From: Prochloraceae cyanobacterium PL24a_bin.78
GTDB taxonomy: Bacteria; Cyanobacteriota; Cyanobacteriia; Cyanobacteriales; JANQIW01
NCBI GenBank assembly: GCA_028281945.1
Contig: JANQIW010000095.1
Span: 1-30,371, forward strand
Length of the DNA stretch: 30,371 nt
Direction of reading: 5' to 3'
Shown here in pieces: positions 1,157 through 28,857 of this stretch. How positions within the stretch are numbered: position 1 is the stretch's first letter; each line of letters starts with the position of its first letter. The position numbers and the translations under genes are program-made. The notes under the pieces are model-generated. The model saw only the letters and a list, made by a program, of their open reading frames with translations. It was not told the DNA's origin and searched no databases.

Positions 1157-1480
1157 TTATGGCGAGCTACTATTCTGTTGAGTTTTTGGCAGAGAACTGG
1201 TCAAAGCTCGATGCACAGCTTCCGGCTCATGATCGATAACTTTGAGAAAATTCCTTGATGGGCCCGATGGCACACGGCGGCCTTGCTCCCAATCTTGGAG
1301 GGTTCTTAGGGAAACCCCAAAATAATCAGCAAAGACGTTCTGACTCATATTGAGCTTAAGACGGATACGCCGGACATTAATTTCTTCGGGGATATGAACA
1401 ACAGAGCCGTTGTCTTCTCCTCTAGCAAAGGCAAGTGCTTCTTCCATTCCCTTGATGAGACTTTCACCTAATTCGCTCAT
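1157..1480 (-). CDS. XRE-family HTH antitoxin (HigA-like)
   Basis: 107 aa. 'MSQNVFADYFGVSLRTLQDWEQGRRVPSGPSRNFL' is a classic XRE/Cro HTH with the 'Q.WE.G...P' signature. Its start overlaps the upstream toxin stop by 4 nt (ATGA). Local GC is about 45-47% against a background near 30%. Confidence 0.75.
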   Translation of the reverse strand: MSELGESLIKGMEEALAFARGEDNGSVVHIPEEINVRRIRLKLNMSQNVFADYFGVSLRTLQDWEQGRRVPSGPSRNFLKVIDHEPEAVHRALTSSLPKTQQNSSSP

Positions 1481-1821
1481 GTATTTTTCCTCCTATACAT
1501 TTCAACAATACTACTAGACAAAGTTTTCAGGATCTTCTTTTCCTTGTCTGTCATGTTTTCTTTCTGGGTTTTTGCATAAACACTCATCAGAAATACAGGT
1601 ATATCAACGCCGCTGAAAAAAGTAATGACGCGGTATCCACCACCTTTTCCCTTACCTTTGGCAGCTACACGCACTTTTCGCATACCGCCGGTACCGACTA
1701 TTTCCTCCCCTATATCTGGATTAGCCGCAATCAAATCGATAATGCTTTCACGCTCATCATCGGATATACCTAATTTCTTGGCACACCTTATAAATTCGGG
1801 CATTTCAACAACACTTTGCAT
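1477..1821 (-). CDS. RelE/ParE-superfamily toxin (HigB-like; toxin-first order with an XRE antitoxin)
   Basis: 114 aa. 'MPEFIRCAKKLG...GGYRVITFF...VFLMSVYAKTQKENMTDKE' matches HigB/RelE-like addiction-module killer proteins. The gene order (toxin upstream, HTH antitoxin downstream, 4-nt overlap) is the HigBA arrangement. The true start may be the internal Met at 1801-1803 (MPEF...). Confidence 0.75.
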   Translation of the reverse strand: MQSVVEMPEFIRCAKKLGISDDERESIIDLIAANPDIGEEIVGTGGMRKVRVAAKGKGKGGGYRVITFFSGVDIPVFLMSVYAKTQKENMTDKEKKILKTLSSSIVEMYRRKNT

Positions 1822-17826: not shown

Positions 17827-17934
17827 AACTTAAAGTTATACCTAAATCAAACCTAAAATAGGCCTGAAGACAAACATCATGACTTGATAATAAAAGGGAA
17901 GAAAGAAATAAAATCAAAAAAATCAAGAAAAATC

Positions 17935-18180
17935 ATGAACTATACTGTTTTAGATAAGATTAATGAGAATCAAATTACGACTCAAGTACAAATTGAATTA
18001 CGTCAAAGAGATAGAAATTTTCAAGAAGTAGGATTGTTAGGAGTTAATTTAGAAGGATTAGATTTAAGTCAAATAGATTTAAAAGAAGTAAAGTTGTCTA
18101 ATGGAAAACTGATAAAAGTGTTATTGATATTTTTTATTTATATAGTTGTTCTTGGATATTCTTATTCTAAATGTGTTTGA
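17935..18180 (+). CDS. Truncated pentapeptide-repeat paralog with a hydrophobic C-terminal anchor
   Basis: The N-terminus 'MNYTVLDKINENQITTQVQIELRQRDRNFQEVGLLGVNLEGLDLSQIDL' aligns with the N-terminus of the 17329 protein ('MNDQELTELINKQIVAEIRNRYIQGERDFQGAQLQGINLSGLNLAGVDL'). It ends in a TM-like tail 'LIKVLLIFFIYIVVLGY'. Start chosen at the internal Met. No clear SD. Confidence 0.4.
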   Translation: MNYTVLDKINENQITTQVQIELRQRDRNFQEVGLLGVNLEGLDLSQIDLKEVKLSNGKLIKVLLIFFIYIVVLGYSYSKCV

Positions 18181-18243
18181 AGTTATTGATTGATTTTTAT
18201 TATATATTTTGATGTATTTAAACAGAAGATAGAGGGGGTTGAT

Positions 18244-18444
18244 ATGAAAGAAGTGTCTTCACAAATTATTAGTTTAGTTGAAAGTCTAAGAGATAAACAA
18301 CAAGATAGATTAACTATTACAAGTCATCTGGCTGATAAAATTCATAAAGTGCAAATCTTACTTGAAGAAAATTCCATTTTAGAGGCAAAAAAAATCATTG
18401 CTGATGCCTTACAAGAGTGTGAAGAGTTAATTAGAATAGTTTAA
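18244..18444 (+). CDS. Small helical protein (~66 aa), paralog A of an uncharacterised family
   Basis: Start taken at 'MKEVSS' preceded by the strong SD 'agagggggttgatATG'. Paralogous to the 18784 ORF. Confidence 0.45.
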   Translation: MKEVSSQIISLVESLRDKQQDRLTITSHLADKIHKVQILLEENSILEAKKIIADALQECEELIRIV

Positions 18445-18783
18445 TTCTAGAAAATAAATTTTTATTTTTATAAAAATTAAGACTTGATTTTGTCTTGGAA
18501 AATAATTAAAGTTATACTACAAAGTAACCTAGTAGTTTCAACTATTTGTTAAACTGAATTTTTTAAAATTTGTTAAAATATGCTAGAATCTGGTAAAGAT
18601 TTAGTAAAGATTTAGTGTGTATTTTAGAGAAAAAAATTATACAGAAATCAAACATTAAGCAAACCTTTAAATATACATTAATATTGGATCATAGAAGGTA
18701 AATTTAGCACTACTATAGTAGTTAAATATACTCAGATTGACTTAACTAATAAAATTCAAAAAAATCATTAGGGAGATGATAAA

Positions 18784-18984
18784 ATGGATAACTTATCTAA
18801 TAGTTTAGAATTTTTAGCCAATACTATCAAAGAAAATAAGCAGGAAAGATTCACTAGATTAACTCAACTTGCAGATACAATGTATCAAGCAAAAATTTTA
18901 CTAAAGGAAGGAAAAAATAATGAGGCGGAAGAGTTTATAGAAATGGCAATTGATAATTGTCAAAAGATTTTATTAATAGGTTAA
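18784..18984 (+). CDS. Small helical protein (~66 aa), paralog B
   Basis: SD 'tagggagatgataaaATG'. Aligns with paralog A: 'KQQDRLTITSHLADKIHKVQILLEE...EAKKII..A...C' against 'KQERFTRLTQLADTMYQAKILLKE...EAEEFI..A...C'. Confidence 0.45.
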   Translation: MDNLSNSLEFLANTIKENKQERFTRLTQLADTMYQAKILLKEGKNNEAEEFIEMAIDNCQKILLIG

Positions 18985-19007
18985 GAGTTATATTAATAAT
19001 TAAATTT

Positions 19008-19460
19008 TTAATTCCATCCATAAGGGCGTAGATTATTAAAATTAATCACATCAATTTCTACTCGCCCAAGATAATTGGCTAATTTTAAATCATCGGTTAA
19101 AACTAGATATTTTTGAGGAATTGATAATTCAATAATTCCACAATCTGTTAAACCAAATTTAGCAAATTTATTATTTGTACTTACCTCTTTACTTTCTAGA
19201 TAAACTTCGTTTAATTTGGTTATTTTCTAAGCTAAAATAGATAAACATTTTCCTCTTTCTGGTTCTGCTAATTGATTAGTTAAACTATTTACTTCTGTTA
19301 AAATATTAGGCGTTGTAACGATTTTTTGAAAATTAGATATCACTATTAATAAAGTATCGTAATCTTTTGGAATAAATGTATTAGTTCCTTTAAACTTAGA
19401 GCTAATTTATAAAGTAAATCTTAAGCCGCAAATTTGTTGAGCATTAAACGAATCATACAT
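19008..19460 (-). pseudogene. Degenerate PIN-like (VapC-type) nuclease ORF with two in-frame stops
   Basis: Hand translation of the minus strand gives 'MYDSFNAQQICGLRFTL*ISSKFKGTNTFIPKDYDTLLIVISNFQKIVTTPNILTEVNSLTNQLAEPERGKCLSILA*KITKLNEVYLESKEVSTNNKFAKFGLTDCGIIELSIPQKYLVLTDDLKLANYLGRVEIDVINFNNLRPYGWN*'. 'ILTEV' and 'LTDDL' resemble PIN acidic motifs. The family call is tentative. Confidence 0.3.
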
Positions 19461-19786
19461 ATATAGGGCAAGCTTACAAAGTACAAAAATCTAATCTGAT
19501 GTCCAGAAAGCTTATGGGGTAAAGGTTTGTTTCTATAGGGATACCCCGATTTGGAAACAAATTTTAGGGATAATGGTCACGTTTTTTGGGGGTTAAAGGT
19601 TATAGCGAAAGCACTTTTTTTGTTTAAAAAAGCTTGAAATCCGCAATGCAGCAATGATTCTATACTCGTTCAGCAAGCCCTAAGCTATTCCTTGTGATGA
19701 GTGTCAAAAATAAAAGAAGCAAAAAAATGTTCTACTTTAGTAAGATAGAAGTCAAAGATGAAAACATTTTATAAACCAAGAGTAAT

Positions 19787-21771: not shown

Positions 21772-22770
21772 CTAACCATGACGTTTTTGATGCCATTGCC
21801 AAGCATGATTAATGATAGTATTTAAGTCAGGATATTGAGGTTTCCAACCTAAAATATGAGTCGCTTTATAAGAGCTTCCTACTAAAATTGGTGCATCTCC
21901 TGGGCGACGCTCGCTTTCATGAGCAATAATCTTTTTCCCTGTTACTTGACGAGCATTTTCAATGACTTCTTTTACAGAGAAACCATTCCCATTTCCTAAG
22001 TTAAAAACATCACTTTTGCCTCCATCTAAAAGATATTTTAATCCCAAAATATGAGCATCAGCTATATCACTAACATGGATATAATCTCTAATAGCAGTGC
22101 CATCAGGAGTTGGATAATCTGTGCCAAAAATATACAAACATTCTCGCTTATTTAAAGCAGTTAAAAGAGTTAAAGGGATAAGATGAGTTTCTGGATGATG
22201 ATCTTCTCCTAATAAACCACTTTTATCGGCACCAGAAGCATTAAAATAACGAAAAGTAATTGATTTTAAACCATAAGCTCGATCAAAATCAGCCAAAATG
22301 GTTTCGATGGTATCTTTAGTAGCTGCATAGGGAGATAAGGGATTGTGTGGATGGGATTCTGTCATGGGAATTTCTTCAGGCATTCCATAAATAGCACAAG
22401 TAGAAGAAAAGACAAAATTCTTGATTCCATGAGCTATCATTGCTTCTAAAAGTGTTAAAGTTCCAGTTACATTGTTACGATAATATTTGGCTGGATTACT
22501 AACAGATTCTCCTACTACAATATAAGCAGCAAAATGCATTACGGCAATAATATTACGAGTAGAAAATAGTTGATCTAAACAAGCTCGATCGTTAGTATCA
22601 CCTACTATTAATTCAGCCTTCAAAACATCTTTAACAATTTCTGGATGACCGGCAGATAGATTATCTAACACAATCACTTCATAACCAGCTTCTAGTAAAG
22701 CTAATACAGCATGAGAACCAATATAACCTGCTCCTCCAGTGACTAACACTGTTTCTTTTCCTTCTGACAT
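21772..22770 (-). CDS. galE: UDP-glucose 4-epimerase
   Basis: 332 aa. Rossmann 'VLVTGGAGYIGSH', catalytic 'YAATK' (YxxxK), overall SDR-extended GalE architecture. SD 'gaggaat' lies upstream. Confidence 0.9.
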   Translation of the reverse strand: MSEGKETVLVTGGAGYIGSHAVLALLEAGYEVIVLDNLSAGHPEIVKDVLKAELIVGDTNDRACLDQLFSTRNIIAVMHFAAYIVVGESVSNPAKYYRNNVTGTLTLLEAMIAHGIKNFVFSSTCAIYGMPEEIPMTESHPHNPLSPYAATKDTIETILADFDRAYGLKSITFRYFNASGADKSGLLGEDHHPETHLIPLTLLTALNKRECLYIFGTDYPTPDGTAIRDYIHVSDIADAHILGLKYLLDGGKSDVFNLGNGNGFSVKEVIENARQVTGKKIIAHESERRPGDAPILVGSSYKATHILGWKPQYPDLNTIINHAWQWHQKRHG

Positions 22771-23000: not shown

Positions 23001-24533
23001 ATGCTAGAAAAACTCGATTTAAAACTCTCTTTAGAAAAAGCTTCTTATAAAGCCGAATTAAACAAATTAATGCCTCAGTTGCGATGGCTACAAAGTAGTT
23101 GTTGGCAGTATAAATTACCGGTAATTATTGTTTTAGAAGGCTGGGCGGCAGCAGGAAAAGGAATTATTGTTAAGAAAATAGTTAAATATATGGATCCTCG
23201 TGGATTCACTTTACATCCTATTTTACCACCTACAAATTCTGAGGAAGAGTATCCTTTTTTATGGAGATTTTGGCAAAAACTTCCTCCCATTGGTAAGTTT
23301 TCTTTGTTTTATCATAGTTGGTATATCAATGTTTTAGAAGCTCGTTTATTCAATAATTTGCCTCCTTCCCAAGTTTCATGGAGAATGAATGATATTAATG
23401 CTTTTGAAAGTCAACTAATAGATGGCGGCGTAACTATCATTAAATTTTGGATTCATTTGAGCCATGAAGAATTAAAACATCGACTCAAAAAATATGCTAA
23501 TGATAAACTTCAAGGGTGGCGAATTAGAAAAGAAGATTGGCAACAAGCTCAAAATTACGATAAATATCTTGAGTTAGTAGAAGATATGCTGGTTAATACT
23601 CATACAAAAGCTGCACCTTGGCAGTTAATCGAAGGAGATTGTAAATATTGGGCAAGGATTAAAGTAGTTTCGGAATTGGTGATTAGGATTACTGAAGCAT
23701 TACAACAGCATAAAATAGGTTTAGTAGAAAAAGAAAAAGTAAAAACCACACCAAATTTATCATTAGATTCAGATTTTATCAAAGACGATTTCCCTAAATT
23801 ACCGAGCTTTTTAGATCAAGTAAATTTAAATTTAAGTTTAGAAGAGACAAAATATCACCATCGCTTAAGTTTGGCTCAAGTTAAATTACGACAAATACAA
23901 CTTAAAATTCATCAAGCTAAAATTCCTGTATTAATTTTATTTGAAGGTTGGGATGCTGCTGGTAAAGGTGGAGCGATAAAACATCTCACTAGAATTTTGG
24001 ATCCTCGCAGTTATCAAGTTCATCCTTTTGGTGCACCCAATGAGGAGGAGAAAAAATATCACTATCTCTGGCGTTTTTGGCAGAAATTACCCCCGAAAGG
24101 AACTATCGGAATCTTCGATCGCACTTGGTATGGCAGAGTTTTGGTTGAAAGAGTAGAAGGTTTAGCGACACAAGAGGAATGGATGAGAGCTTATGAGGAA
24201 ATTAATCAGTTTGAAGCCCAATTAATTCATGAAGGATATTTAATCGTAAAATTTTGGCTACATATTAGTCAAGAAGAGCAACTAGAAAGATTTCAAAATC
24301 GAGCAAAAGATCCATTAAAAAGTTATAAATTAACTGAGGAAGATTGGCGCAATCGAGAAAAATGGGATAAGTATTTTATTGCTATTAATCAGGCTATTGC
24401 TCGTACTAATACGCCTCAAGCTCCTTGGAATCTTGTTCCTGGAAATGATAAATATTTGGCAAGAGTTTATGTTATAGAAACAGTAATTGATGCTATTAAG
24501 AAAGCTCTTAAAAAGAAAAACCATAAAAATTGA
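23001..24533 (+). CDS. ppk2: Two-domain polyphosphate kinase 2 (PPK2; polyphosphate:AMP/nucleotide phosphotransferase type)
   Basis: 510 aa with duplicated PPK2 domains, each carrying a Walker A ('VLEGWAAAGKG', 'LFEGWDAAGKGG') and a 'WRFWQKLPP' lid motif. Confidence 0.9.
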   Translation: MLEKLDLKLSLEKASYKAELNKLMPQLRWLQSSCWQYKLPVIIVLEGWAAAGKGIIVKKIVKYMDPRGFTLHPILPPTNSEEEYPFLWRFWQKLPPIGKFSLFYHSWYINVLEARLFNNLPPSQVSWRMNDINAFESQLIDGGVTIIKFWIHLSHEELKHRLKKYANDKLQGWRIRKEDWQQAQNYDKYLELVEDMLVNTHTKAAPWQLIEGDCKYWARIKVVSELVIRITEALQQHKIGLVEKEKVKTTPNLSLDSDFIKDDFPKLPSFLDQVNLNLSLEETKYHHRLSLAQVKLRQIQLKIHQAKIPVLILFEGWDAAGKGGAIKHLTRILDPRSYQVHPFGAPNEEEKKYHYLWRFWQKLPPKGTIGIFDRTWYGRVLVERVEGLATQEEWMRAYEEINQFEAQLIHEGYLIVKFWLHISQEEQLERFQNRAKDPLKSYKLTEEDWRNREKWDKYFIAINQAIARTNTPQAPWNLVPGNDKYLARVYVIETVIDAIKKALKKKNHKN

Positions 24534-24800: not shown

Positions 24801-25014
24801 CACCTTTGGCGTAGCCTCTGGGTAAGCAGAAGTCTATCTTACTTTTGGAAAATTGATATAAGGGAACATTTTTCCATTGAAAAGAGTCAATATATACCAA
24901 AGAAGAATGAAATTCTCCTTGAATATGATAAAGTCAAAATTTGATACAATAGTAGTCAACTAATAGTAATGCAAAAGAGTTTAACCTTCAAACCTAAATT
25001 AGGAGGGAAAAATT

Positions 25015-25584
25015 ATGAAAATATTTAATCTTAAAAACAATTGCCCTCAGTCAACAACAGACAAAACCCATGGGCAAACTAAACCGAAAAATAACCAACA
25101 ATTGTCATTTCAAAAGCTAAACAAAACACTCAAAGTATTTCTTGGAAGTACAATTTTAGCTGCCTCAACTTTGATGTTTGTCGATGTTAGCCCTAATTTA
25201 GCTCAATCTTGTAGAGCATTAGAAGTAGTCGGTGGTCAAGGGACTAAAGTAGATAAAAAAGTGACACCGCCAAGTGCTCCTCCTTTTTTCAGAAATAATT
25301 GGAATACTGATTTTCTAGTATCTAGAGATAGAAATTACTACAAGTACGTTTCTACCTTGATGCCAAAAGATAGTGGAGAATATAAAATTATGATGTTTCT
25401 TAAGTATAGTGATGATACCGCAGATCAAGTCTACGATCAAAAAATCACTTTAACAGAAGGAAAGCCTTTCTACATTACAGGTTCACCTCGTCGTAATGAT
25501 CAACCCTATCAAGTGAATGTCTTTGTTGGAGGCCTAACATCTGTAGGCAAATCTTATACTCTTTATGTAAATGGCTGTCGATAA
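25015..25584 (+). CDS. Hypothetical secreted protein
   Basis: 189 aa. Strong SD 'aggagggaaaaattATG'. Signal-peptide-like segment 'LGSTILAASTLMFVDVSPNLAQS' follows an unusually long ~40-aa polar N-region. Ends in 'YVNGCR'. Confidence 0.5.
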   Translation: MKIFNLKNNCPQSTTDKTHGQTKPKNNQQLSFQKLNKTLKVFLGSTILAASTLMFVDVSPNLAQSCRALEVVGGQGTKVDKKVTPPSAPPFFRNNWNTDFLVSRDRNYYKYVSTLMPKDSGEYKIMMFLKYSDDTADQVYDQKITLTEGKPFYITGSPRRNDQPYQVNVFVGGLTSVGKSYTLYVNGCR

Positions 25585-25690
25585 ATCAAGGGAATAATTA
25601 GGTTTATTAAATGATGCCAATATAGGTTATTTTATATTTTTTTAGAAGCTTTGAGTCGCTAAATTTACTTCATATCAAAAAAAAAAGAGA

Positions 25691-26821
25691 TTAATTAGCT
25701 TGATAAATTTTTAATCTTTCTTGATATTTAGCGACTAAAGACTTCATTGATTTGACATTTTGGTTATAATACCCCTTAGATAGATGAGAGTAACAAGTAA
25801 GGGAAGCCCAAACACGACAAGATTTAATAATAGCTTCTTTCAAATTACCTTGTTTTAATTTTCGCAGAGCACCTATCTCTTCTAATTTAGAAATAGCCCA
25901 TTTATCTTGTTCTTGAGGTGCAAAAGAAGTCATATTTTTGGCATTAAAATCCAAAATTTGATAGCGACCAAAAGCAGTAGAACAAGTTTTTTTCCCACTT
26001 TCGGTGATATAGGTAATACATTTTTCGGGATGAGTGGTTAAATCATCAACTATTTCCCCACCAAATAAAGTTTTATAACCTAAAGGATGGAGGGTTCCTT
26101 CTGCCCATGCAATGGTATCTAAAAATGCTTTTTCTTGGGGAGACAAAGAAGATAAAGCAGTAGTAGCTTTAGCAGGATTATATTTAATACTTATTTTCTC
26201 TTGATAAACTGGTTCTACCTGTTGAGTTTTTTGTTCTAATTTAGGATGAGGATTACGCTCGGATGATAGTGAGTTTAAACCAAAAGCAATACTAAATACA
26301 GAAGCCACCGCCATTGACATCATGCCAAGAGAAATTACCTTTTTTTTCTTTTTAAGATTTCTTTTATTGACTTTTGCTAAATCCTCTGGAATAGTAATAA
26401 CTATAAATTTGCCAGAATTTAAATTTTTCATAAAGAAACGTTTAGATCCTTGTAAATCTCGAGTATCCTTTAAGAGGAAATCTAGAATATTACCTTGAGA
26501 ATCTATTGCTTTATAAATATAGATATCTTGACCTTGAATAACTATTTTTCTTTCAACAACTTGCCAATCGGAAATTTTCTTGGCTTCATACTTCATTTTC
26601 TTAACTTGGGAAGAATAACGTCTAACTAAGGAAAAGAATGTGACACGATCGAGATCAAATCCCCTTTGAGACATGATCTTCTCAATTTTACGGTAGTTTT
26701 TATCGTAGTAAACATACCAGGCAACGCAAAGTAAGAGCATCTCTTCTTTTGTTTCTTTCCAAGAGCTTTTCAACTGAGCTTGGAGTTTATGATTATATTT
26801 ATTATTTAAAGTTGAACTCAT
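25691..26821 (-). CDS. Chimeric ORF: degenerate IS6-family transposase N-terminal fragment fused in frame to a SAR-type (signal-anchor) lambda-R-like lysozyme / lytic transglycosylase
   Basis: Residues ~28-140 'LLLCVAWYVYYDKNYRKIEKIMSQRGFDLDRV...WQVVERKIVIQGQDIYIYKAIDSQGNILDFLLKDTRDLQGSKRFFMKNL' align with the IS26 transposase block 'ILWAVRWYCKYGISYRELQEMLAERGVNVDHST...WHMDETYVKVNGRWAYLYRAVDSRGRTVDFYLSSRRNSKAAYRFLGKIL', but DETY reads VERK. A weakly hydrophobic A/G/S-rich TM 'MMSMAVASVFSIAFGL' follows. The C-terminus 'KAFLDTIAWAEGT...GYKTLFGGE...HP...CSTAFGRYQIL...AIIKSCRVWASL' matches lambda R endolysin 'KAFLDMLAWSEGT...GYDVIVGGE...HP...STGAGRYQLL...AIDRCSNIWASL'. Confidence 0.65.
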   Translation of the reverse strand: MSSTLNNKYNHKLQAQLKSSWKETKEEMLLLCVAWYVYYDKNYRKIEKIMSQRGFDLDRVTFFSLVRRYSSQVKKMKYEAKKISDWQVVERKIVIQGQDIYIYKAIDSQGNILDFLLKDTRDLQGSKRFFMKNLNSGKFIVITIPEDLAKVNKRNLKKKKKVISLGMMSMAVASVFSIAFGLNSLSSERNPHPKLEQKTQQVEPVYQEKISIKYNPAKATTALSSLSPQEKAFLDTIAWAEGTLHPLGYKTLFGGEIVDDLTTHPEKCITYITESGKKTCSTAFGRYQILDFNAKNMTSFAPQEQDKWAISKLEEIGALRKLKQGNLKEAIIKSCRVWASLTCYSHLSKGYYNQNVKSMKSLVAKYQERLKIYQAN

Positions 26822-27117
26822 TAAAATAAATCCTAAATTTTAAATATTTAAGCTTGGCTTATAGACTTAGAGTGGCTGATAGATAATACGGTATAAAAAA
26901 GTGTTCTTCAAACATCGAGAGATTGAGATACCAAATGTTAATTACTAAAAGCCTAACTGGTAAAGTAGGTTAAATCGACATAATCGAGATTCAGGGTAGT
27001 TTTCCAAGTCATTGTTTCAAATCAGTATGGTATTTCACCAAGCTATTAGGATTGTACCTTCTTAGGTGCTTTTTTTCAAAAAAGACTTTAATATATTTGA
27101 TTTAGCAAGTTCAGAAT

Positions 27118-27357
27118 TTACCAAGTCAGATCTAAATCAATCTTAACAGAAAGCTCAGATTTACCATAGGGAACAGCTGTAATACAACTACAAATACAAG
27201 TTCCATCATCTAATTCAACTTCACAGGCATGGCAAGATCCCATCAAACAACCTGTAGGAATAAAGACTCCTGCTTTTTGGGCGACTTCTAAGATAGATTC
27301 ACCGGGTTCTGCTTGGATTTCGATTTCATCAGGGAGAAAAGTAATTTTTACACTCAT
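27118..27357 (-). CDS. Small 2Fe-2S ferredoxin-like protein
   Basis: 79 aa. Cys pattern 'GCLMGSCHACEVEL...CICSCI' is a 2Fe-2S-type fold. Lies 12 bp downstream of cobQ on the same strand. Confidence 0.65.
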   Translation of the reverse strand: MSVKITFLPDEIEIQAEPGESILEVAQKAGVFIPTGCLMGSCHACEVELDDGTCICSCITAVPYGKSELSVKIDLDLTW

Positions 27358-27369
27358 TTTTTCTATAAT

Positions 27370-28857
27370 TTAATTGGGCAAAATAGATGTTAAATCTAAA
27401 TGGGTTTCTACTATATTGGCAATATTATCTAAAAGATCTTCTCTTCGATCGCGATAATTGACGATTCCAGTGGGAAGAGTAGGCAATCCTCGTTTAAGAC
27501 GTAGATAATTTAACCAGAGACGTCGCCAAGGGCCGTTATCAAATAAACCATGAAGATAACATCCCCAGATAGATTTTGATTGATTCACTAATCCTAAATT
27601 AGGATCTGAGAACATGGGATGACAAGTATAATTGGTATCTAATGTATTATTATCGATCATTTGGGTAAATCCTTGATGGATTTCATAACCATCTATTGGT
27701 AAACCTGTTTGGGGATAGGATGAAAAAACTTGTCTTTGACGTGAAATCTTATTTTCCATAATTGTAGTTTTTATCGGTAGTAAATCTAATCCAGTGTGAT
27801 TTTTAATCCTCCCTTCAAGTAGATTAGGATCTAATAATTCTTTACCTAAGATTTGATAACCACCACAAATACCGATAATTGTTCCTCCTGCGGCTACATA
27901 ATTTTTCAATTGTTCTGCCATTCCGCTTTCCTTTAAACGTACCATGTCGGAAATGGTGGTTTTAGAACCGGGAATTATGACCGCATCAGGATGTCCTAAA
28001 TTTTCCTTCAATCCTAAATATTCTAGTAATACTGATGTTTCAGCTTCTAAAGGATCGAAATCTGTAAAATTAGAAATATAAGGTAAGCGAATTACGACAA
28101 TTCTAAGATCATAGTTAGTTTTACTAGTTCTTCTTTCAAGCAAATCTAAGGAGTCTTCTGCTGGAAATAAATTTTCACTCCAAGGGATAACCCCAATTAC
28201 AGGAACTCCAGTAAAGTTTTCTAACCAAGTAATTCCTGGATCTAAGAGTGATTTATCTCCTCGAAATTTGTTAATGACAATACCTTTAATAAGGGCGCGT
28301 TCATCTTCTTCTAATAAAGCCAAAGTTCCCACCACATGGGCAAAAGCACCACCACGATCGATATCCACTATCAAGATGGAAGGAGCGTTAAGATATTTAG
28401 CCACTCGCATATTACTTAAATCCCGATGCTTCAGATTAATTTCAGCAGGGCTGCCTGCGCCTTCACAAACCAGTAAATCAAAATCTGTTTCCAAGGAAGA
28501 GATTGACTCGGTAATGGCTTGCCAACCTTTATGGAAATATTCCTCGTAATACTGATGGGCGGTAGTAAATCCAGCTACTTCTCCTTTAATAATTACCTGA
28601 GAAGTCATATTTCCTTGGGGTTTAAGCAAAATAGGATTCATTTCTACTCTAGGTGTAACACAAGCAGCCCATGCTTGAACGGCTTGTGCATAACCGATTT
28701 CCCCTCCTGTGGGGGTTACATAGGCATTTAATGCCATATTTTGGGCTTTAAAGGGTGCTACTTGCCAACCTTTTCTAGAAACAATTCGACACAATGCTGC
28801 TGTTAAAAAGGATTTTCCAGCATGAGATGTGGTTCCTACTACCATTATTGCTTTCAT
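27370..28857 (-). CDS. cobQ: Cobyric acid synthase (CobQ/CbiP)
   Basis: 495 aa. N-terminal P-loop 'MVVGTTSHAGKSFLTAALC' and C-terminal glutamine amidotransferase 'GICGGYQILG...H' are both present. Confidence 0.9.
   Translation of the reverse strand: MKAIMVVGTTSHAGKSFLTAALCRIVSRKGWQVAPFKAQNMALNAYVTPTGGEIGYAQAVQAWAACVTPRVEMNPILLKPQGNMTSQVIIKGEVAGFTTAHQYYEEYFHKGWQAITESISSLETDFDLLVCEGAGSPAEINLKHRDLSNMRVAKYLNAPSILIVDIDRGGAFAHVVGTLALLEEDERALIKGIVINKFRGDKSLLDPGITWLENFTGVPVIGVIPWSENLFPAEDSLDLLERRTSKTNYDLRIVVIRLPYISNFTDFDPLEAETSVLLEYLGLKENLGHPDAVIIPGSKTTISDMVRLKESGMAEQLKNYVAAGGTIIGICGGYQILGKELLDPNLLEGRIKNHTGLDLLPIKTTIMENKISRQRQVFSSYPQTGLPIDGYEIHQGFTQMIDNNTLDTNYTCHPMFSDPNLGLVNQSKSIWGCYLHGLFDNGPWRRLWLNYLRLKRGLPTLPTGIVNYRDRREDLLDNIANIVETHLDLTSILPN

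Follow-up and report, generated by a model that had tools for sequence, protein, structure and literature searches.

A probable exapted fusion of an IS6-transposase-derived module with a membrane-anchored lambda-R-like lysozyme in unicellular cyanobacteria

The window analysed here is a stretch of 30,371 nucleotides, contig JANQIW010000095.1 of assembly GCA_028281945.1, from Prochloraceae cyanobacterium PL24a_bin.78. At positions 25691..26821 of its minus strand lies an open reading frame (ORF) that starts with ATG, has no internal stops and closes with a stop codon at 25691-25693 (minus). The 376-aa product would be a bitopic fusion of an insertion sequence (IS) transposase fragment with a lysozyme, and its parts follow each other on the minus strand. 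The IS6-derived N-terminal module (aa 1-136; 26414..26821) consists of what was once the H-HTH region (a helix and then a helix-turn-helix) followed by the front of the RNase-H-like core and is predicted to be cytoplasmic and non-catalytic. Next come a basic juxtamembrane linker (aa 137-161; 26339..26413), which ends in KVNKRNLKKKKK and supplies the positive-inside signal, and a transmembrane (TM) segment (aa 162-180, VISLGMMSMAVASVFSIAF; 26282..26338). A variable periplasmic linker (aa 181-220; 26162..26281) leads to a predicted periplasmic domain of the lambda-R-like (GH104) lysozyme or lytic transglycosylase type (aa 221-376; 25694..26161). The original prediction recognised this ORF and both of its halves, and interpreted it as the relic of an IS6 transposase lying in front of a phage-derived signal-arrest-release (SAR) endolysin. 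The description of the two halves has held up. The interpretation is only partly supported, and the gene is very probably a conserved and selected exapted fusion that is maintained as a single unit.

The protein is modular, with matches of its N-terminal half to IS6 transposases and of its C-terminal half to lysozymes that are far beyond chance. Residues 20-136 match NF033587, the NCBIfam model of the IS6 transposases, at model positions 2-120 of 202 with an E-value of 4e-26. The score of 92 bits is below the equivalog cut-off of 125 bits because only the front half of the transposase is present. Part of the 139-position Pfam model PF13610 (DDE_Tnp_IS240), positions 3-75, is matched as well with an E-value of 3.5e-12, and here the score of 47 bits passes the gathering cut-off of 27. 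By both profiles, the module is homologous to the IS6 family, and its identity to genuine IS6 transposases is about 30%.

In Tnp26, the catalytic triad is D78/D138/E173, and the binding of the terminal inverted repeats (TIRs) of IS26 needs F4, F9, R49 and W50; Y54 was also tested (Pong et al., PMC8477213). These hallmarks were compared in an alignment of eight genuine IS6 transposases with 12 sequences of the fusion family. All eight transposases retained F4, W50, Y54 and the D-E-T-Y motif. All 12 family sequences carried V, A or E at the position of D78 and Leu at the position of W50, and all had lost F4 and F9. The T-Y of DETY was replaced by IP, TF, RK or KR, and the residue equivalent to R49 varied among members. 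Of these N-terminal residues, Y54, which is Y69 in the window protein, was the only one that the family retained. In the window protein, the WRVDETY of genuine transposases is aligned with W86-Q-V-V89-E-R-K92, which confirms that DETY reads VERK and that the first DDE aspartate is lost, as had been noted. By this alignment and the published Tnp26 numbering (PMC8477213), V89, at the site of D78, is encoded at 26555..26557 (minus). S64 and L65, of which L65 is invariant, stand at the sites of the recognition-helix residues R49 and W50 and are encoded at 26627..26632 (minus).

The noted loss of the C-terminal half of the transposase was also borne out, and no catalytic-core sequence was present past the alpha1 'FF' motif. 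The regions bearing D138 and E173 are deleted across the family, with the exception of a vestige of the D138 region in the homologue P0002 (FFRKVFKPGDHQSLYVRDIANNGAYLKGFEQFK, compared with FFRKALK...TVDKNAAYPIALKTMK in IS6 transposases). Judging by this vestige, the transposase may first have been broken shortly behind the second Asp, with later trimming in individual lineages, and the common derived signature argues for a single origin. With D78 and W50 changed and the second Asp and the Glu deleted, the N-module is not a transposase. Judged from the alignment, it has lost the DDE chemistry as well as the residues by which Tnp26 binds the IS ends. Four features of IS6 elements, namely the DDE triad, the TIR-binding residues, inverted repeats of about 14 bp and multi-copy mobility, are all missing from the fusion gene. 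The flanks (25000-27400) contained only chance-level repeats of the AT-rich background and no IS-like terminal inverted repeats, in agreement with what had been observed before. Short, high-scoring IS6-like matches (P0032-P0055) were considered as further domesticated forms and rejected. They all keep DETY and RW and are therefore ordinary IS6 fragments.

An AlphaFold2 (AF2) model was built from 19 sequences. In the N-module, which was modelled with confidence (predicted local distance difference test, pLDDT, of about 80-94), three helices lead into four beta-strands and a further helix, and the helix bundle of the former H-HTH was retained. Its net charge is +10 in the window protein and +4 to +15 across the family; the same segment in active IS6 enzymes has a net charge of +1 to +9. 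Foldseek searches with the module gave only non-significant matches, to DDE transposases and integrases. No matches were found among the PDB sequences, and a word-index search with the module alone returned nothing.

The second half of the protein carries a lysozyme domain. Residues ~225-370 match lambda lysozyme R (PDB 1am7/3d3d) with an E-value of 2e-17 over 143 residues (phmmer), and the PHROG 90 endolysin family matches the C-terminal domain with an E-value of 5e-27. All the lambda-R motifs originally listed are present, with AWAEGT aligned to AWSEGT and then GGE, HP and GRYQ. E241 of AWAEGT is invariant in 19/19 aligned sequences; in lambda R, the catalytic Glu of the AWxEGT motif is Glu19. 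The AF2 model of this domain, with pLDDT >90, matched 3d3d with a Foldseek TM-score of 0.78 (E 7e-8). By its sequence, its fold and its catalytic-Glu motif, the domain can be assigned to the GH104 family of lambda R, and it would be expected to act by lytic transglycosylase chemistry, which gives 1,6-anhydro-MurNAc products. Pfam and NCBIfam models gave no match to the C-terminal 210 residues.

Four Cys residues (C268, C280, C335 and C343) are invariant in the family and confined to the C-terminal domain, and they are also found in the signal-anchored, lysozyme-only relatives P0009 and P0022. Such a distribution is what an oxidising, periplasmic site would lead one to expect, and the ancestor may well have been a resident anchored lysozyme of this kind. 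The best phage lysozymes are at most 37% identical to that of the window, and the fusion was found in none of the phage records and viral contigs. GH104 domains as a group may plausibly have come from phages, but the comparisons provide no pointer to a recent prophage source of the window lysozyme. P0009 was also considered as a lysozyme-only relative occupying the slot of the fusion gene, and this was rejected: it is cyanobacterial, but the contexts are unrelated.

GH104 domains were also met in other arrangements. P0026, P0030 and P0159 were considered as distant fusions and rejected, as they are tandem double GH104 proteins. The profile search further found GH104 combined with NlpC/P60 in P0048 and P0131, and an M23 peptidase combined with GH104 in P0162. 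No Pfam-A model detected the GH104 domain in any of these six proteins. The third-best match of the lysozyme, both in structure and in sequence (E 6.5e-6 for the latter), was PDB 8kea, the baseplate hub of cyanophage A-1(L), which has a GH104 domain; cyanophages therefore also use lambda-type lysozymes as virion-associated, wall-piercing enzymes. P0132 (L051:1898-2878; 326 aa) consists of a tyrosine-recombinase-like, SAM-like N-domain, a basic stretch, a TM segment and a lambda-type lysozyme. The matches of its N-domain are weak (PF13495, E 2e-4, under the cut-off; XerA 5hxy, E 0.002), and it may represent a second, independent architecture of the type recombinase DNA-binding domain, TM, GH104. 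In P0136, an Arg-rich tail is followed by a TM segment and a lambda-type lysozyme.

The reading frame runs without a stop into an A/G/S-rich TM segment, as was originally described. Residues 162-180 form one hydrophobic segment with a Kyte-Doolittle mean of 2.03 and 42% G/A/S, and the pair Met167/Met168 lies at its start. These residues, together with the homology of the lysozyme to lambda R and phage endolysins and the existence of lysozyme-only, signal-anchored relatives such as P0009 and P0022, would fit a dead IS6 fragment standing in frame before a phage-derived SAR endolysin. The product would then start at the internal MMSMAVAS, and the transposase part would be junk or a promoter. The rest of the family is difficult to reconcile with this explanation. 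A hydropathy scan found a single TM segment in every member, starting at residue 146-201, behind a folded basic domain of 145-200 aa and a Lys/Arg cluster. A folded, highly basic N-domain of 160 aa cannot leave the membrane behind a SAR helix. Across members, the TM segment has 21-42% G/A/S and a Kyte-Doolittle mean of 1.5-2.6; most orthologues have an ordinary Leu/Ile/Phe-rich anchor with 21-37% G/A/S and a mean of up to 2.6. In the window protein, the 15 residues preceding the TM segment have a net charge of +7, compared with +1 after it, and the fusion protein would be oriented N-in/C-out in the cytoplasmic membrane.

The proposed internal start fared no better. Met167 and Met168 are peculiar to the window protein. 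Every homologue was scanned for in-frame ATG, GTG or TTG codons between the 'FF' motif of the IS6 module and the TM segment. This stretch is free of such codons in P0004 and P0007, so internal initiation is not a family feature. For a full-length transcript of the window gene, the sole candidate signal is a sigma-70-like promoter match, TTGAAG-17-TATTAT, at 26883..26911 (minus), 62-90 nt 5' of the ATG. The promoter scan returned 7 sites against 8.4 expected, and this match is statistically no better than chance; the terminator scan also gave chance-level results. The Lys-rich linker contains an A8 run (window 26339-26362, minus; gene nt 475, ~460-483), where a slip of +1 or -1 would give N-module-only products of 176 or 161 aa. 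Programmed or transcriptional slippage at this run was considered and rejected. A-runs are absent from P0002 and P0006, and the run in the window is probably no more than a consequence of encoding Lys by AAA/AAG where the DNA is AT-rich.

The family was delimited from a search of 5.8 billion proteins. Six other proteins of 348-403 aa, all with PF13610, cover 94-99% of the query at 40-45% identity, and a metagenome scan added L014 (387 aa) as the eighth full-length member, the window protein included. Overall, the full-length members cover the query at 40-50% identity, and they can be aligned collinearly over their whole length. When 1.84 billion cluster representatives were searched exhaustively with a HMMER profile, only four full-length clusters and fragments were found. 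Below the full-length clusters, the matches divide into ordinary IS6 transposases and lysozyme-only proteins. In public databases, members are annotated as 'IS6 family transposase' or 'DDE-type integrase/transposase/recombinase', and no description of the fusion architecture was found in the literature on IS6 domestication and on GH104 in cyanobacteria. Most members come from metagenome or Logan assemblies, which could suggest a chimeric contig or a frameshift joining two genes. The same architecture recurs in independent NCBI, ENA, JGI and Logan assemblies, the window protein is present in two sources and the junction sequences are conserved, so that the probability of an assembly or annotation artefact is negligible. 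The existence of full-length orthologues that form a conserved unit is the outcome that the original prediction had itself named as contrary to its reading.

A scan of the GTDB species genomes found one locus per genome. In the window, two genes downstream of the fusion gene are syntenic neighbours: PPK2 (23001-24533, plus) and an NAD-dependent epimerase (21772-22770, minus). In Gomphosphaeria aponina SAG 52.96 (L002) and in L014, the order is ABC(-), fusion gene(+), small ORF(-), PPK2(-) and epimerase(+), where the ABC gene encodes an MsbA-like exporter of 581-582 aa that is divergent from the fusion gene. The window retains the half with PPK2 and the epimerase, in the same relative order and orientation. 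In L005, L007 and L008, it is the half with the ABC exporter that is retained, and the fusion gene is followed downstream by Wzy_C, which encodes an O-antigen-ligase-like protein. Altogether, five genomes have the fusion gene and the MsbA-like exporter in divergent arrangement, several have Wzy_C at a distance of 20-60 nt downstream of the fusion gene, and a Bac_transf gene lies near the family gene in L044; all three of these neighbours are envelope-related. The window and L004 are without the ABC neighbour.

The divergence of the fusion protein tracks that of the neighbouring genes. Between Gomphosphaeria and L014, identity is 69% for the fusion protein, 85% for PPK2, 88% for the epimerase and 79% for the ABC exporter. 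Between the window and Gomphosphaeria, the values are 41%, 63% and 79% for the fusion protein, PPK2 and the epimerase, and L005 and L007 share 72% identity in the fusion protein and 79% in the ABC exporter. By these comparisons, the fusion gene is judged to be single-copy, chromosomal, syntenic and vertically inherited. The small convergent ORF was considered as a partner and rejected: the window ORF of 189 aa is not homologous to the Gomphosphaeria ORF of 286 aa, although the Gomphosphaeria and L014 versions are 70% identical. Heptanucleotide tandem repeats lie just 3' of the stop codon of two homologues, (CAACTAT/CAACCAT)n at L002:11114-11210 and (GATAATT)n at L004:6832-6860. They resemble the short tandemly repeated sequences of cyanobacteria, and there is no such repeat after the stop of the window gene.

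The surroundings also bear on the proposed phage origin. It had been suggested that the lysozyme is phage-derived and that the transposase piece either supplied its promoter or marks the deletion that stranded it, and a search of the flanks for prophage remnants had been proposed. The window proved to be ordinary cyanobacterial chromosome, with GUN4, DnaB, RNase II, a pentapeptide protein, CobQ, ferredoxin and a RelE/HTH toxin-antitoxin pair, and no prophage or IS genes were found in it. In the window and the homologous loci, no holin or pinholin and no spanin (Rz) context was found, only housekeeping genes. Together with the distance to phage lysozymes and the lack of the fusion in viral contigs, this leaves these suggestions without support. 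The toxin-antitoxin pair (window 1157-1821, minus) consists of a RelE-family toxin (PF06296) and an overlapping HTH_3/MqsA-like antitoxin gene, and about 2 kb of the window (17827-19786) contain no ORF of at least 100 aa on either strand. Among the 5.8 billion proteins searched, none exceeds 64% identity to the window PPK2, a two-domain protein of the polyphosphate:AMP phosphotransferase type. The host lineage is therefore poorly sampled, with no close sequenced relative; the nearest named relatives of this PPK2 belong to cyanobacteria of the Chroococcales/Pleurocapsales type.

Conservation is distributed unevenly along the protein. The mean pairwise identity is 66% in the lysozyme, 47% in the N-module, 28% in the block of the juxtamembrane linker and TM segment (aa 137-190) and 11% in the periplasmic linker, which was modelled with pLDDT <50. 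The ratio of nonsynonymous to synonymous substitution rates (dN/dS), calculated by the Nei-Gojobori method (NG86) for the three closest pairs, is 0.14-0.21 in the N-module, 0.13-0.30 in the lysozyme and 0.43-0.75 in the linkers. These ratios indicate that the N-module is under purifying selection as strong as that on the lysozyme domain. A pseudogenised segment would be expected to drift like the linkers and to gain stops in DNA of 28-39% GC. Additionally, the frame is open in eight lineages at 40-50% identity, and 140 neutral codons would hardly ever stay open at 30% GC. With the start codons missing in P0004 and P0007, the synteny with housekeeping genes and this selection, a relic in front of a SAR endolysin is extremely unlikely.

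One lineage carries the module without the lysozyme. P0023, found by the profile search, has 198 aa, in which the IS6 module is followed by the basic linker, the TM segment and a 30-residue tail. It is encoded at L044:8001-8597 and L048:6001-6597 in Geminocystis-like genomes. The identical sequence is indexed in 75 collection blocks (24 contigs examined), and the contigs of this cluster reach 112 kb, which indicates a complete gene. It is annotated as 'IS6 family transposase' in 'Cyanobacteria bacterium CG_2015-16_32_12' and as 'DDE-type integrase/transposase/recombinase' in Geminocystis sp. (WP_373480001.1). The gene lies 20 nt upstream of Wzy_C, in the slot of the family, and a tblastn search revealed no lysozyme remnant. 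Selection in this form was evaluated in two strains, both with the deletion, and this decisive close-pair test rests on their 21 nucleotide differences. Codons 1-125 contain 8 synonymous and 2 non-synonymous differences (omega about 0.06, binomial p = 7e-5 against neutrality). The linker, TM segment and tail contain 3 synonymous and 8 non-synonymous differences (omega about 0.65, not significant). The module is therefore maintained in its own right, whether or not the enzyme accompanies it.

The persistence of a selected, truncated transposase suggests comparison with inhibitors of transposition. Truncated transposases, such as the Tn5 inhibitor and IS1 InsA, are classic transposition repressors. 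A host-encoded IS6 inhibitor could poison multimers or compete for ends, and the membrane tether could sequester the active transposase. In favour of this role, the module is selected independently of the lysozyme and keeps the part of the core that contributes to binding affinity (PMC8477213). The TIR-binding determinants F4, F9, R49 and W50 are, however, lost in all members, and the identity of about 30% to real IS6 transposases makes co-assembly doubtful. No IS6 copies were seen in the loci examined, and the fusion to a lysozyme would be left unexplained. Such a function is very unlikely.

The strongest specific rival is a one-component regulator of the ToxR/CadC type, in which the IS6 bundle would bind DNA, the lysozyme would sense peptidoglycan or muropeptides and the protein would control the transcription of the adjacent envelope genes (ABC exporter, Wzy_C). 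The predicted N-in/C-out layout with a basic helix-bundle in the cytoplasm agrees with it. So do the position divergent from the MsbA-like exporter or shortly before Wzy_C and the retention, under selection, of the N-module and TM segment in a form without the periplasmic domain. Nevertheless, the lysozyme is the most conserved part of the protein and all its catalytic motifs are invariant, as would suit an enzyme better than a domain that only senses. Furthermore, R49 and W50, which serve in DNA recognition, are lost, there is no conserved operator-like motif upstream, and two loci, the window and L004, have no ABC neighbour. Overall, this alternative is unlikely.

The favoured explanation, to which we assign a probability of about 0.7 as a whole, is that a bitopic membrane protein carries an exapted IS6 module in the cytoplasm and an active muramidase in the periplasm. 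The gene would encode one functional protein and be neither a decayed transposase nor the product of accidental read-through. An IS6-family transposase would have lost everything beyond the vicinity of its second catalytic Asp, and the remaining piece would have been joined upstream to the signal-anchor of a GH104 lysozyme that was resident in the genome and contained the Cys residues. The fusion would have arisen in the ancestor of a small unicellular cyanobacterial clade (Gomphosphaeria, Geminocystis-like strains and relatives), followed by vertical inheritance. The periplasmic domain would act as a membrane-tethered muramidase or lytic transglycosylase in local peptidoglycan remodelling, which is probably linked to the envelope-polysaccharide genes (the MsbA-like ABC exporter and Wzy_C). 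The basic cytoplasmic module would bind a target without catalysis, so as to position or gate the enzyme or report on it, and would additionally have an enzyme-independent role. Any specific mechanism for this module is tentative, and a tether between nucleoid and envelope is among the candidate roles. From its charge, a polyanion (DNA or RNA, for instance) is favoured, and a nucleic acid that is bound with new specificity is the leading candidate target, at somewhat less than even odds. A protein partner is a less probable candidate, and some other target is unlikely. The lost recognition residues, the variable R49 site and the missing upstream motif speak against a simple retention of IS-end binding.

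Several points weigh against the favoured explanation. The recognition residues of Tnp26 are lost and the R49 site is variable, which makes DNA binding by the module uncertain. A common operator-like or TIR-like motif was looked for in 6 upstream regions, and no 9-mer occurred in 4 or more of them. Full-length expression, the topology and the activity of the fusion protein are all deduced from its sequence. In the window, the Met pair could add a minor, shorter SAR-like product besides the full-length protein. The family is small (about 10 lineages) and known mostly from metagenome assemblies, and dS is near saturation in the deeper pairs. In the short Logan contig L043 (1-882), the frame of the N-module runs upstream of the called Met but is interrupted by a stop codon 8 codons before the contig ends, which reflects either an assembly error or real decay of the N-module.

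Many well-studied cases of exapted transposase domains are known from eukaryotes, but in bacteria the phenomenon is rare and poorly characterised, and the RAYTs are the textbook case. The family described here appears to be a clean and datable bacterial case, with shared inactivating substitutions, selection, vertical inheritance and a natural domain deletion. The arrangement of a cytoplasmic basic domain, a TM segment and a periplasmic GH104 domain is an unrecognised layout for a cell-wall hydrolase. These proteins are labelled as transposases and their lysozyme is not seen by Pfam; consequently, IS censuses are slightly inflated and a peptidoglycan enzyme is overlooked. A broader claim is tentative and, taken as a whole, somewhat unlikely. 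It would make this the first domesticated IS6-family module in bacteria, an autonomous, membrane-tethered binding domain in the cytoplasm that forms a physical link from the cytoplasm or nucleoid to an enzyme cleaving peptidoglycan in the periplasm, possibly with DNA binding of new specificity. In view of P0132, it may also be one case of a design that has arisen repeatedly, in which the DNA-binding domain of a recombinase is followed by a TM segment and a lambda-type lysozyme. Geminocystis and related unicellular strains can be cultured, so the function of the family is experimentally accessible.

The fusion resembles several known systems and differs from each of them. It shares homology with the IS6/IS26 transposases (Tnp26) over the first ~130 residues, which comprise the helix bundle, the linker, and beta1-beta3 and alpha1 of the RNase-H-like core. 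In contrast to these enzymes, it has no DDE triad (D78 is V, and the D138 and E173 regions are deleted), and the TIR-binding residues F4, F9, R49 and W50 are replaced. It is also single-copy, syntenic and vertical, has no terminal repeats and is joined to a TM segment and a periplasmic enzyme. With lambda R (GH104; PDB 1am7/3d3d), it shares the fold and the motifs AW(A/S)EGT, GGE, HP and GRYQ. The fusion lysozyme is, however, only ~33-37% identical, has four invariant Cys residues that are absent from lambda R, is anchored by an internal TM segment and is encoded by a chromosomal housekeeping-type gene, not a lysis cassette. The SAR endolysins P1 Lyz and phage 21 R21 also export a muralytic domain by means of an N-terminal, partly G/A/S-rich segment, and the window TM segment is similar in this respect. 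In the fusion family, by comparison, the TM segment is internal, behind a folded basic domain, and is mostly an ordinary anchor, and there is neither a holin or spanin nor a conserved start. ToxR and CadC have the same predicted layout, with a cytoplasmic helix-bundle N-domain, one TM segment and a periplasmic C-domain. The N-terminal fold of the fusion is derived from the IS6 H-HTH and is not an OmpR-type winged helix, and its periplasmic part is apparently an enzyme. Finally, the gene has several attributes of a domesticated transposase: it is single-copy, vertical and syntenic, with purifying selection on the transposase-derived part. The RAYTs, which are domesticated bacterial transposases (Bertels et al. 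2017, PMC5581495), likewise show a single copy, vertical descent, purifying selection and no self-mobility. They differ in being IS200-type HUH enzymes that have catalytic residues and act on REPINs, whereas the fusion, which is connected to a membrane enzyme, keeps only the non-catalytic front half of a DDE transposase.

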